Shown here: piece after piece, positions 15,000-17,993 of the stretch
How positions within the stretch are numbered: position 1 is the stretch's first letter
Layout: each line of letters opens with the position of its first letter
Source: Desulfospira joergensenii DSM 10085
GTDB taxonomy: Bacteria; Desulfobacterota; Desulfobacteria; Desulfobacterales; Desulfobacteraceae
DNA length: 32,000 bases
Assembly (NCBI RefSeq): GCF_000420085.1
Contig: NZ_ATUG01000001.1
Span: 1,479,223 to 1,511,222, forward strand
Direction: 5' to 3'
The notes under the pieces: generated by a model
What the model saw: the letters and a program-made list of their open reading frames with translations, nothing else
What the model was told of the DNA's origin: nothing
The model's database searches: none
Position numbers and translations under genes: made by a program

Positions 15000-15249
15000 T
15001 TATTTAAAGATAGAGGAGGGACTCAGACCGAACATCTGCTTAAAGGTACGGCTCAAATGGGCAGAGTCTGAAAAACCGGCCATAGGGCTGCTTCCGTCAG
15101 GTTGCTGTCGGCAATACAGGCATATTTTACCGCTTCCATTGTTTGAGCCATTTGAGGTATCGTTTGAAAGAGAGGCCTGTCTCTTCTTTAAAAAGGTGAC
15201 GGACCCGGCTCTTTTGATTTGGGTCACTATACCGCACAAGGGCTGTCAT
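15000..15249 (-). pseudogene. AraC/XylS-family regulator remnant: HTH region only, with two frameshifts
   Basis: Three consecutive minus-strand reading frames together spell an AraC HTH: SRVRHLFKEETGLSFKRYLKWLK (stop), then MEAVKYACIADSNLTEAAL (frame change), then MAGFSDSAHLSRTFKQMFGLSPSSIFK (stop). There is no room for an N-terminal effector domain, because the TetR gene ends at 15278. Confidence 0.75.
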
Positions 15250-15277: not shown

Positions 15278-15946
15278 TCAGACGGGCCTGTCCGGTCCCT
15301 TTTGCAAAGCCCCGTTGAGAAAAGTCGTTACAGACTCGATCACGCTCTCGCTGAAATCGGGTTCAAATATGTCGATTTGAGCTTCCTGAAGCAGCTTCTT
15401 TACCTGCCTGGGGCTGTAAAACATCTGCCACAGACCGAATATAAGGGCATAGATCCTCAGATGGACTTTTACCCACTGGTCCGCGCTCAGACCCGGGAAA
15501 AGTCTGCAGGTCATCTGGCTGCGGGCATCCAATAACCCGGCAAGCTGAATCTTGAATTTCAGAAACATCCCCTCGTCATCATCTCCTTCGAAAAGGCTGT
15601 TGGCAATGCTTCCCATTTTCAAGACCAGGGTATTTTCAATGATGTACTGACTTGACAGCCTGGCATACCCGGATACACTTATCTTCCCGGGATGGTTTTC
15701 CAAAGTCTCGGCAACGGAGTCATGCCACAATTTGAGCTGATGCATGTAAAGAGAAAGAAAAATCTCATTCTTTGTTTTAAAGTAAAGATAGACACTTCCC
15801 TTGGACAGTCCGGCCTTCCGGGCGATCTCGGAAACCGTGGGGAGGGTCCCTTCACTTTTTTCATAAAGCAGCCAGGCGGTTTTTAAAATTTTTTCCCTGC
15901 GTCTGAGTTTGTCTTTTTCATTGATGGCTCGTTTCCGGACTGCCAT
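15278..15946 (-). CDS. TetR/AcrR-family transcriptional regulator
   Basis: N-terminal HTH TVSEIARKAGLSKGSVYLYFKTKNEIF. RBS AAAGGAAG lies 7 nt upstream of the ATG. Confidence 0.9.
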   Translation of the reverse strand: MAVRKRAINEKDKLRRREKILKTAWLLYEKSEGTLPTVSEIARKAGLSKGSVYLYFKTKNEIFLSLYMHQLKLWHDSVAETLENHPGKISVSGYARLSSQYIIENTLVLKMGSIANSLFEGDDDEGMFLKFKIQLAGLLDARSQMTCRLFPGLSADQWVKVHLRIYALIFGLWQMFYSPRQVKKLLQEAQIDIFEPDFSESVIESVTTFLNGALQKGPDRPV

Positions 15947-16029
15947 GGCCGAGGCTTCCTTTTCTGTTGCGGATCAGTATCATTTTCCGGACAGTATCAA
16001 ATACCCGTTTTTAAAACAATAAAAATAAT

Positions 16030-16101
16030 TGACTATCGGTCATTTGTTCCTTGACAACTGACCATCGGTCAATTATATTTTAAACAAATGACCACGGGTC
16101 A
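16030..16101. promoter_or_regulatory. Three phased palindromic operators (TGACC-N3-GGTCA); candidate TetR binding array
   Basis: aatTGACTATCGGTCAttt (16030-16042), aacTGACCATCGGTCAatt (16059-16071) and aaaTGACCACGGGTCAgtt (16089-16101). Starts are spaced 29 and 30 bp apart. The flanks extend the dyad (AAn...nTT). Confidence 0.7.
16051..16079 (+). promoter_or_regulatory. Near-consensus sigma-70 promoter: TTGACA, 17-nt spacer, TATATT
   Basis: TTGACA is at 16051-16056 and TATATT at 16074-16079. The spacer is exactly 17 nt and consists almost entirely of operator 2. Operator 3 covers the predicted transcription start. The promoter faces the small ORF at 16175. Confidence 0.65.
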
Positions 16102-16174
16102 GTTATGCCGGCTGTTGATCCGTATGTCATGATTCTATCCATGTTTTTTAAAAAAGAAAAAGGAGAAACAGATA

Positions 16175-16456
16175 ATGAAAAAAAAACTTATCACCTTTAT
16201 CGCCATACTCAACCTGATATTTTTTAGTTCAATATCTTCGGCCCAGGCGTTTATTGATCCCGCATCTTTGACCCTGATCTTTGGTGCGGCCTTTGTCACA
16301 GTGGTGACCGGGTCTGAACTGATCAGAGATTCCCAGGCAGAGCCTGCCCAGGCGCAAATCCAAAAGGAGGACCCGGTCAAAGGCCAGGCCCGGGAAAAAA
16401 CGGACAAGATCACGGAAACTCAAATTGGGACCGACCCGTCCCCTTCCGGGTCCTGA
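16175..16456 (+). CDS. Small secreted or membrane-anchored protein of unknown function (93 aa)
   Basis: RBS AAAGGAGAA lies 7 nt upstream. The signal peptide MKKKLITFIAILNLIFFSSISSAQA has an AQA-F cleavage-type site. A second hydrophobic stretch (LTLIFGAAFVTVVTG) follows, then a Q/E/K/P-rich tail. The gene is bracketed by its own promoter and terminator. Confidence 0.65.
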   Translation: MKKKLITFIAILNLIFFSSISSAQAFIDPASLTLIFGAAFVTVVTGSELIRDSQAEPAQAQIQKEDPVKGQAREKTDKITETQIGTDPSPSGS

Positions 16457-16477
16457 TGCAGCACAAAGATCCATCCA

Positions 16478-16508
16478 GGGGTTTGGTCCGGCTTCCGGAC
16501 CGAACCCC
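16478..16508 (+). terminator. Stem-loop terminator candidate after the 93-aa ORF
   Basis: GGGGTTTGGTCCG (16478-16490) pairs with CGGACCGAACCCC (16496-16508), giving a 13-bp stem with one G-U pair and a 5-nt loop. A T-run (ATTTTT) follows after about 12 nt. Confidence 0.55.
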
Positions 16509-16656
16509 TGCCAAAGGTATTTTTGAGAATGCCGAGTTGCAAATATGTGGAAAAGACAACAAGAATAGTTACATTTTCGCACATTCCACCGTGCCGAATA
16601 TCCATCTCGTCCCCGGAACCCATTGTTATTTCAATTCATTTTTCACCCAGACATCC

Positions 16657-16672
16657 TGGCACAAAAATTGCT
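16657..16672 (+). promoter_or_regulatory. Sigma-54 (-24/-12) promoter
   Basis: TGGCAC-AAAAA-TTGCT matches TGGCAC-N5-TTGCW exactly. It lies 68 nt upstream of the EAL gene ATG. Confidence 0.7.
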
Positions 16673-16739: not shown

Positions 16740-17993
16740 ATGAAATCAGACATCCGTTTAGACCTGCCGTTTATCCGGGAATGGGCCGTCAAAAAGAGAC
16801 CCTACCTGACCGGACAGATGAATGGTCTTGACCTGTATACAGCGCTGCAGCCCATTTTCAGCCTTGCCCACAAACGGGTGGTCGGGCATGAAGCCCTGGT
16901 AAGGGTCAAAGACACGGTAAAGGATCGCTGGGTGAGCCCTGTCTCCCTGTTTGACACCAACAAAGGTTCTGCTGAACTGATTCATCTGGACCGGCTCTGC
17001 CGCTATATTCACATCAACAACTTCAAAAGCCTGGACAATCCGGTCAACTGGCTGTTTTTAAATGTTTCCCCGACAACCATCATCAACGGCATGGAATATG
17101 GCTCCTATTTCAGAGAACTGCTTGAATTGTTTGATTTTCCGCCCCACAGGATCGTCATTGAAGTTGTGGAGCACCCCATTTCAGACAATTATCTCTTGAT
17201 GGAAAATATAGAGTTTTACAAAAGCCTTGGGTGTCTGGTGGCCATTGACGACTTCGGGGCAGGCCATTCAAATTTCAACCGCATCTGGAACCTGAAACCC
17301 GACATCGTAAAGCTGGACCGGTCATTTCTGGTAAAGGCTTCCCAGCAGAAAAACATCCGGGCTCTGCTGCCGGGGATCATTGCCCTCCTTCACCAGGCAG
17401 GCTCCCTGGTTCTGGTTGAGGGAATTGAGACCCGGGACCAGGCCATCATCGCCATTGAAAGCGATGCAGATTTTGTCCAGGGATTTTATTTTGGAAGACC
17501 TTTCACAAACCTGTCAGATCCCCCCAGGGGGTTTGATCAGTTTGGGGACCTCTTTAAGCAGTATAAGGACTTTTCCAACAGGGATGATTTACGATTTCAA
17601 AAAAGAATCGATAAGTACTCCTGCCTGTTCACCCGATCGGTGGAGGGATTAAAAAGCGGCTTGACCACGGAAGAGGCGGTAACGGGCCTGATGTCCGATC
17701 CCTCGGTTGCCAGGTGTTATCTGATCGGAACCGACGGCATCCAGATCGGCAGAACCCTGTTTTCAAAGTCCTGTGCCCTGGACAAGGATCAGCGGTTTAA
17801 GCCCATAGAAGATGCCAGAAATGCCGACTGGTTCAGGCGCCATTATTTAAAACGGGCCATTCTCCATCCGGATCAGCTCCAAATCACAAGGCCCTATCTC
17901 TCCATTACCGGTGCCCATATGTGCATTACCCTTTCCATGAAATTCAAAGGGCCGGAAAAAGACAGTGTGTTGTGCTGCGATCTTGTCCTGTAA
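16740..17993 (+). CDS. EAL-domain c-di-GMP phosphodiesterase with a C-terminal PAS/Cache-like sensory domain (YkuI-like architecture)
   Basis: EAL catalytic motifs appear intact: GHEALVR, FLNVS, IEVVEH, AIDDFGAGHSN, VKLDRSF, LVEGIET, QGFYFGRP. The C-terminal ~140 aa has a Cache/PAS-like pattern (CYLIGTDGIQIG..., ADWFRRHYL..., ITRPYLSITGAHMCITLS). No TM helices. Confidence 0.85.
   Translation: MKSDIRLDLPFIREWAVKKRPYLTGQMNGLDLYTALQPIFSLAHKRVVGHEALVRVKDTVKDRWVSPVSLFDTNKGSAELIHLDRLCRYIHINNFKSLDNPVNWLFLNVSPTTIINGMEYGSYFRELLELFDFPPHRIVIEVVEHPISDNYLLMENIEFYKSLGCLVAIDDFGAGHSNFNRIWNLKPDIVKLDRSFLVKASQQKNIRALLPGIIALLHQAGSLVLVEGIETRDQAIIAIESDADFVQGFYFGRPFTNLSDPPRGFDQFGDLFKQYKDFSNRDDLRFQKRIDKYSCLFTRSVEGLKSGLTTEEAVTGLMSDPSVARCYLIGTDGIQIGRTLFSKSCALDKDQRFKPIEDARNADWFRRHYLKRAILHPDQLQITRPYLSITGAHMCITLSMKFKGPEKDSVLCCDLVL

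Follow-up and report, generated by a model that had tools for sequence, protein, structure and literature searches.

We analysed a 32,000-nucleotide stretch of the Desulfospira joergensenii DSM 10085 genome (contig NZ_ATUG01000001.1, positions 1,479,223 to 1,511,222; hereafter the window), in which a gene for a TetR-family repressor and a gene for a small protein of 93 amino acids diverge from a shared intergenic region of 228 bp. This region contains three dyads of the form TGACC-N3-GGTCA, namely TGACTATCGGTCA at 16030-16042, TGACCATCGGTCA at 16059-16071 and TGACCACGGGTCA at 16089-16101, placed on and around the promoter of the small gene. The features of the divergent pair are listed below in window coordinates.

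15278-15946, minus strand: gene for the TetR-family repressor (tetR), 222 amino acids, with the Pfam domains TetR_N and TetR_C_34
16025-16047, no strand: operator O1, core 16030-16042, centred at about -50 from the predicted start and lying between the divergent promoters
16051-16056, plus strand: -35 hexamer TTGACA of the small-gene promoter
16054-16076, no strand: operator O2, core 16059-16071, the core wholly within the 17-nt spacer
16074-16079, plus strand: -10 hexamer TATATT
16084-16106, no strand: operator O3, core 16089-16101, the extended site overlapping the predicted start at about 16086
16160-16165, plus strand: Shine-Dalgarno sequence AAGGAG, 9 nt before the ATG
16175-16456, plus strand: gene for the small protein, 93 amino acids, with a predicted signal peptide (residues 1-25), a predicted transmembrane helix (about 29-48) and a polar, disordered tail (49-93)

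Operators, promoter and repressor

The small-gene promoter, TTGACA-17-TATATT, agrees with the consensus at 11 of 12 positions, and the cores of the three operators fall within 72 bp: the core of O1 ends 8 nt before the -35 hexamer, that of O2 leaves two free bases on either side within the spacer, and that of O3 begins 9 nt after the -10 hexamer. Start-to-start distances between the dyads are 29 bp and then 30 bp. An earlier note on this DNA, made from the letters alone, had described three dyads at 16030, 16059 and 16089 with a spacing of 29-30 bp, the middle one in the 17-nt spacer of TTGACA/TATATT, and they are present as it described them. Its further proposal that the dyads lie on the same face of the DNA holds only approximately, and strict helical phasing is not supported. 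At 10.5 bp per turn, 29-30 bp correspond to about 2.8 turns, which sets adjacent operators about 70 degrees apart and O1 about 140 degrees from O3. Among the orthologous loci described below, the O2-O3 distance is 30 bp in all 12 loci measured and the O1-O2 distance is 29, 30 or 31 bp. Because the latter wobbles by 1 bp, a strict same-face requirement is disfavoured, and the spacing looks to be set by the anatomy of the promoter rather than by phasing.

A weight matrix for the 23-bp operator was built from 36 sites at 12 loci, 33 of the sites coming from other genomes, and gave the extended consensus A-N-AA-N-TGACC-NNN-GGTCA-N-TT-N-T. O1-O3 score 27-32 bits with this model, and a scan of the whole 6.1-Mb D. 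joergensenii genome found no fitting site beyond them. The next genome site reaches 17.3 bits, below the weakest training site (19.8 bits), and the predicted regulon in this genome is therefore a single promoter. The simpler pattern TGACYNNNGGTCA occurs at seven places in the genome, three of them at the small-gene promoter, and the reversed control pattern at 4-6. The three-dyad arrangement is strongly non-random. The remaining exact dyads of the genome, such as those at C1:178405 and C2:93482, are wrongly flanked, score below the operator model and were treated as chance. One of these, the perfect dyad TGACCAATGGTCA at G000:C1:178405-178417 (L001:1501-1513), lies 74 nt upstream of an open reading frame (ORF) of more than 479 amino acids; its flanks (G...C) misfit the extended operator, it scores below 12 bits, and it is probably a chance match.

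The repressor matches TetR_N (PF00440; 36.9 bits, cut-off 24, E-value 3.1e-09) and TetR_C_34 (PF17929; 58.9 bits, cut-off 26.3, E-value 7e-16, residues 95-212). It has the marks of a type I TetR-family regulator, namely a TetR_N helix-turn-helix (HTH), an all-helical C-terminal domain and palindromic operators shared with a divergent target. NCBIfam gave no equivalog at cut-off, its best matches spanning the HTH only and lying far below cut-off, and the PDB sequence matches were generic TetR regulators, found mainly through the HTH. Residues 36-59 of this HTH are almost invariant among the orthologues, in keeping with the invariance of the operator half-sites. Metal sensing was considered for the repressor and rejected: it has no conserved cysteine (C147 of the D. 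joergensenii protein is not conserved), and the small protein lacks a Cys/His/Met motif. Nothing useful was found in the literature on PF17929 or on D. joergensenii transcriptomes.

Conservation of the cassette

Searching species-representative genomes with the TetR protein returned four loci at 55-62% identity, in two metagenome-assembled genomes (MAGs) of Desulfospira and one each of Desulfobacteraceae and Desulfobacula. Scanning metagenomes with an alignment of the TetR proteins yielded nine full-length orthologues (51-58% identity), and L041 was added by looking up one small-protein homologue. With the near-identical L022 and L023 counted once, there are 14 distinct loci (the window, L006-L009, L021, L022/L023, L024-L029 and L041) from Desulfobacterales genomes and metagenomes, with TetR identities of 51-62%. 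Every one carries a divergent small-gene homologue of 81-93 amino acids. O1 is kept in all 14, including L027, from which O2 and O3 are lost, and the complete order O1, TTGACA, O2, TATATT, O3 in 13. Across the loci the half-sites and both hexamers are invariant or nearly so, and the three central dyad bases and the 5' untranslated region vary freely; invariant half-sites around variable centres are the pattern expected where a protein contacts the half-sites. The -35 hexamer TTGACA shows no variant among loci that retain the promoter core. The -10 hexamer is TATATT in most loci; L009 has TATCAT, and the unlinked paralogue copies introduced below have TATACT or TATAAT. The small gene appears to be governed by a protein repressor, unlike the small hydrophobic toxins of type I toxin-antitoxin systems, which an overlapping antisense RNA controls.

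An all-against-all comparison of neighbouring ORFs across the loci revealed no third conserved gene. What follows the small gene differs from locus to locus: in the window it is an EAL gene, L006 has an unknown 900-amino-acid ORF, L007 encodes a major facilitator superfamily (MFS) transporter, the next gene of L008 is convergent, and L041 has a UbiA-family gene. Conservation is therefore confined to the TetR gene, the operators, the promoter and the small gene, which make up a two-gene cassette of marine sulfate-reducing bacteria. The 900-amino-acid ORF of L006 (480-3182, minus strand), a lineage-specific insertion, has no Pfam domain and separates the small gene from the gene that, in L008, directly adjoins it in convergent orientation.

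The small gene was found in six of 161 Desulfobacteraceae genomes, all three Desulfospira genomes among them, and in 11 of the 401 genomes of the order. The other two Desulfospira genomes hold a second, unlinked paralogue (L049:1763-1834 and L050:1754-1825) with a TTGACA promoter and three TGACC-N3-GGTCA operators of its own, and no TetR gene lies within 1.5 kb of either copy. One TetR presumably serves two promoters in those two genomes and one in D. joergensenii. Because the operator module travels with the small gene in these copies, they lend independent support to the assignment of the dyads to this TetR. The idea of the earlier note that a TetR repressor is dedicated to a tightly gated small exported protein is supported by 14 loci that pair the two genes, by the conservation of the operators and by the lack of any other fitting site in the genome.

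The upstream side of the cassette is less uniform. A weak candidate promoter of tetR was placed in the window as follows.

15993-16022, minus strand: candidate weak tetR promoter, low confidence, with -35 TTATTG (16022-16017), an 18-nt spacer and -10 GATACT (15998-15993)

It was located by positional analogy with L021-L029 and L041 only, and a promoter scan of the window returned no site on the minus strand with at least 9 of 12 matches. The tetR promoter of L021-L029 and L041 is clear: TTGCAT-17-TATACT, with a TG upstream, begins 6 nt past O1, which places O1 between two divergent promoters, at about -50 relative to either. TetR may thus regulate its own gene through O1. The two Desulfospira MAG loci L006 and L008 have an extra 120-200 bp separating the tetR promoter from O1 (L006:3700-4000 and L008:3780-4000, the L008 insert containing short GGAGACCGG-type repeats), and these insertions uncouple tetR from O1. 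Since they separate the two, autoregulation through O1 is not a conserved feature, and the comparison of the loci indicates that the conserved role of O1-O3 is control of the small gene. Directly downstream of tetR, at 15000-15239 on the minus strand, we also noted a 79-amino-acid ORF whose last 25 residues match an AraC-type HTH (HTH_18 and HTH_AraC, both below the gathering score), a truncated AraC remnant that suggests a rearrangement at the edge of the cassette.

The small protein and its transcript

Pairwise ratios of nonsynonymous to synonymous substitution rates (dN/dS) among the small-gene orthologues are 0.15-0.58, with lower values for residues 1-55 (0.15-0.44) than for the tail, and AAGGAGG or GGAGG stands 5-9 nt upstream of the ATG in all 13 orthologous small genes. 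These ratios and the ribosome site in every copy show that the small gene is a real coding gene. A word-based homologue search with the single protein found only itself; the family was found by an exhaustive HMMER search of 1.84 billion representatives, which gave 17 relatives (representatives at 50% identity), all of 70-103 amino acids. A profile search extended these to 64 clusters at 90% identity, all annotated as hypothetical or mislabelled, none with a Pfam domain, and with named sources in Desulfobacter or Desulfobacterales. A PDB sequence profile search with the small protein produced chance-level matches to transmembrane helices only.

Family members share a basic start (M-K/R-K-K) and a hydrophobic core, followed by F-G-T/S-x-x-S-A-x-A and F-I/V-D-P, in which A-x-A has the form of a signal-peptidase I site. 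Next come a second hydrophobic helix ending in V-T-G-x-E and a tail that varies but abounds in K, E and Q. Conservation peaks at F17, G18, A23, A25, F26 and the second hydrophobic helix, and the tail is variable. C-terminal motifs differ by sub-clade: S/T-P-G(-S) occurs in the window protein, P0002, L006-L008, P0011 and P0012, and the small proteins of the L024-L029 clade end in D-D-S/F-D/E-K/N/R.

The D. joergensenii protein has the elements of a signal peptide, with MKKK, a 13-residue hydrophobic core and A23-Q24-A25 ahead of F26. In an alignment of 18 family members A25 never varies and A23 hardly does. The hydropathy profile rises to the same height at residues 4-18 and 31-45 and ends in a polar tail, and an AlphaFold2 model informed by 13 orthologues places helices at 2-23 and 29-64, broken at the predicted cleavage site, with a tail of predicted local distance difference test (pLDDT) score below 50. 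These features are parsimoniously explained by a Sec preprotein whose mature form of 68 residues would be held by one helix with a cytoplasmic tail, and we consider it likely that the product resides in the membrane. The earlier note had seen a 93-residue protein with a signal peptide, a further hydrophobic segment and a polar tail; those features are there, and its term secreted fits less well than membrane-resident. Readings as a type IV or Flp pilin, a type IV secretion system (T4SS) pilin or a filamentous-phage coat protein were rejected, as the family has no G|F-x-x-x-E or Flp motif, the conserved Gly-x-Glu comes after its hydrophobic segment rather than before it, and there is no pilus, T4SS or phage context.

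Two features lie downstream of the stop codon of the small gene.

16476-16510, plus strand: hairpin with a 16-bp stem, 20 nt past the stop codon; probable 3' end or terminator, non-canonical
16657-16671, plus strand: sigma-54-type promoter TGGCAC-N5-TTGC of the EAL gene, an exact match (L010:1983-1997), 68 nt upstream of that gene

The hairpin folds with a z-score of -4.3 and is unique in the genome, and the orthologous and more distant small genes also have hairpins after their stop codons, many of them with U-runs. The EAL gene (16740-17993, with an EAL domain) lies 283 nt beyond the small gene in the same orientation, and no other locus has an EAL gene in that position. Because it has its own sigma-54 promoter, the small gene is probably monocistronic. 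The transcription unit of a single gene claimed by the earlier note is consistent with that promoter and with the lack of any other shared neighbour in the 14 loci. Its claim that the unit is closed by its own hairpin stands in part: the strong 16-bp stem is real, and it is not a canonical terminator.

More distant homologues show other wiring, in which differing regulators generally keep the family under strong, gated control. Those of L011-L014 have a promoter of the TTGACA/TATCTT type about 90-150 nt before the ATG, with a spacer dyad TACCAC-N3-GTGGYA that looks like the operator of a trans-encoded repressor; no regulator gene was present in the 9-14 kb examined around these four homologues. 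In L020 the small gene is preceded, at a distance of 84 nt, by a sigma-54 promoter. In a Desulfobacter sp. chromosome (CP054837.1, L039:2077-3258) the homologue starts 12 nt after a gene for a universal stress protein (Usp), itself preceded by a sigma-54-type promoter and by a pair of genes for a histidine kinase and a sigma-54 activator. Further neighbours of distant homologues include genes for ecotin, a CpxP-like Metal_resist protein, an M48 peptidase, an extracytoplasmic function (ECF) sigma factor and OsmC. Weakly and anecdotally, these neighbourhoods lean towards an inducible role in envelope or membrane stress.

Proposed switch, alternatives and known systems

We propose that TetR dimers bind the three 23-bp palindromes, O1 upstream of the -35 hexamer, O2 in the spacer and O3 over the start, and that their occupancy would block RNA polymerase at a near-consensus sigma-70 promoter. 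A small-molecule ligand of the TetR_C_34 domain would release the repressor, whereupon the derepressed promoter and the consensus ribosome site would give a burst of a single monocistronic 93-residue preprotein. Sec would export this preprotein and signal peptidase I would cleave it behind A-Q-A25, leaving a mature 68-residue inner-membrane protein with a very short periplasmic N-terminus, one transmembrane helix and a disordered, probably cytoplasmic tail. The product would then act within the membrane, its best candidate role being that of an inducible stress or membrane modulator. A ligand-released TetR switch on the small gene is, from the sequence evidence, very probable. The reading as a whole, a TetR-gated two-gene cassette with a single-pass membrane product, we hold to be likely, and the role of the product as a stress modulator is tentative. 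Among the functions that the earlier note had offered, membrane modulator seems the most plausible.

Several observations weigh against this reading. The small protein has no match in Pfam, NCBIfam, PADLOC or PHROGs. The AlphaFold2 model is of low confidence (overall pLDDT 59.5), the tail has six basic and eight acidic residues and gives no clear positive-inside signal, and a non-cleaved two-helix hairpin is a possible alternative topology. No U-run adjoins the stem of the 3' hairpin (a U5 run begins 11 nt after it), and some read-through towards the EAL gene may occur. L027 (2444-2777) retains the TetR gene, O1 and the small gene, intact and with a ribosome site, and unrelated sequence stands in place of O2, O3 and the TTGACA/TATATT core. 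This natural variant, either rewired or decaying, shows that the full layout is not obligatory.

The earlier note had suggested, among other functions, a toxin, bacteriocin-like or signalling peptide. On such a reading the protein would be secreted, and kept under triple repression as a harmful product or a costly signal. Very strong expression signals under three operators, a Sec-type signal peptide and the patchy distribution of the family in the order and in the Desulfobacteraceae are in its favour. It fits poorly, however, with a protein whose conserved part is the end of the signal peptide and the transmembrane helix, and whose would-be released tail is variable, disordered and cysteine-free. 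No conserved gene for immunity, export, processing or reception lies nearby, so that a bacteriocin-type function in particular lacks its usual company; defence (PADLOC) and phage (PHROGs) libraries gave no match, and the homologues in a Usp operon or behind sigma-54 promoters point to stress rather than bacteriocin regulation. We therefore regard such a peptide as unlikely. It is extremely improbable that not the ORF but a regulatory RNA is the functional product of the transcript. The small size of the protein and its lack of any family match would speak for this, but dN/dS lies far under 1, every locus keeps an open frame of 81-93 codons with a ribosome site, the 5' untranslated region is not conserved, and no Rfam match came near the gathering score.

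Two further alternatives concern the extent of the circuit. If the promoter read through the hairpin into the EAL phosphodiesterase gene, the TetR ligand would control the turnover of cyclic di-GMP. The hairpin without an adjoining U-run, which a terminator consensus scan did not list as terminator-like, and the EAL gene 283 nt downstream on the same strand would allow this. The exact TGGCAC-N5-TTGC promoter at 16657, the hairpins that orthologous small genes have of their own, and the replacement of the EAL gene elsewhere by an MFS transporter, the unknown 900-amino-acid protein or a convergent gene make it quite unlikely. It could also be that another regulator binds the dyads, or that TetR mainly controls distant targets and its adjacency is incidental. 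The dyads were assigned to TetR by sequence, unlinked copies of the operators, promoter and small gene lack a neighbouring TetR gene, and the distant homologues with TACCAC-N3-GTGGYA have no adjacent regulator. Against this, the dyads accompany TetR in 14 loci, each with different flanks, loci of small-gene homologues that lack a TetR orthologue also lack the dyads, the unlinked copies belong to genomes that have the TetR too, and O1-O3 remain the only sites in the D. joergensenii genome that fit the operator model. We consider this alternative very improbable.

With the TetR-gated cassette as the preferred reading, a testable regulatory circuit is assigned to an unannotated family of 64 clusters, in sulfate-reducing bacteria, where small membrane proteins and inducible promoters have barely been studied. 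The switch is compact, with near-consensus hexamers, three operators, a consensus ribosome site and a single-gene regulon in about 150 bp, and it could be turned into a tightly inducible expression part for Desulfobacterota when its ligand has been found. The identity of that ligand would also reveal which stress these sediment bacteria counter with the small protein. More speculatively, and somewhat short of an even chance in our judgement, the small protein may found an undescribed Desulfobacterales family of repressor-gated single-pass membrane micro-proteins whose sensors differ by lineage, acting as a general membrane-stress effector or as a modulator of a larger membrane complex. The sensors would then be this TetR, another spacer-binding repressor, or sigma-54/Usp operons, and the dedicated TetR would sense an envelope-active compound.

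The arrangement recalls several known systems. In Tn10, tetO comprises two sites about 30 bp apart centre to centre, and tight synthetic promoters such as PLtetO-1 place a single operator in the spacer and another ahead of the -35 hexamer. The present locus resembles Tn10 TetR/tetO in having palindromes of about 19-23 bp on and between the promoter hexamers, and differs in having three sites rather than two, one of them over the start, in its half-site TGACC, in a target that is a small membrane protein rather than an efflux pump, and in having no conserved autoregulation of tetR through its sites. The RutR operator of E. coli, TTGACCA-NN-TGGTCAA, shares the TGACC/GGTCA half-site, with a half-site spacing that is off by 1 bp. 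An identification of the repressor as RutR was rejected, the RutR models of NCBIfam reaching 23 and 17 bits where 368 and 230 are required. The small protein can be compared with AcrZ, MgrB and MgtS of enterobacteria, which are stress-induced proteins of fewer than 100 residues with a conserved functional transmembrane helix and modulate larger membrane proteins. It would likewise be a small single-pass inner-membrane protein with a conserved helix, whereas none of these three is known to have a cleavable signal peptide or to answer to a dedicated TetR.

The closest precedent is the E. coli pair ComR (YcfQ) and ComC (YcfR/BhsA), in which, as far as it is summarised in PMC6790063, a TetR-family repressor with copper as inducer guards one small exported envelope protein and is released by that inducer (Mermod et al. 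2012, BioMetals 25:33). There is no sequence relationship between the two systems: the small protein here has no Pfam match and is thus not a DUF1471/YhcN protein, and the repressor is no ComR equivalog. The title of Mermod et al. (via PMC6790063) ties ComC to outer-membrane permeability, whereas the product here is predicted to keep a transmembrane helix and its promoter has three operators. The regulatory logic at this locus is that of a conventional type I TetR system, unusually tight with its three operators and with an undescribed small-protein family as its sole target.

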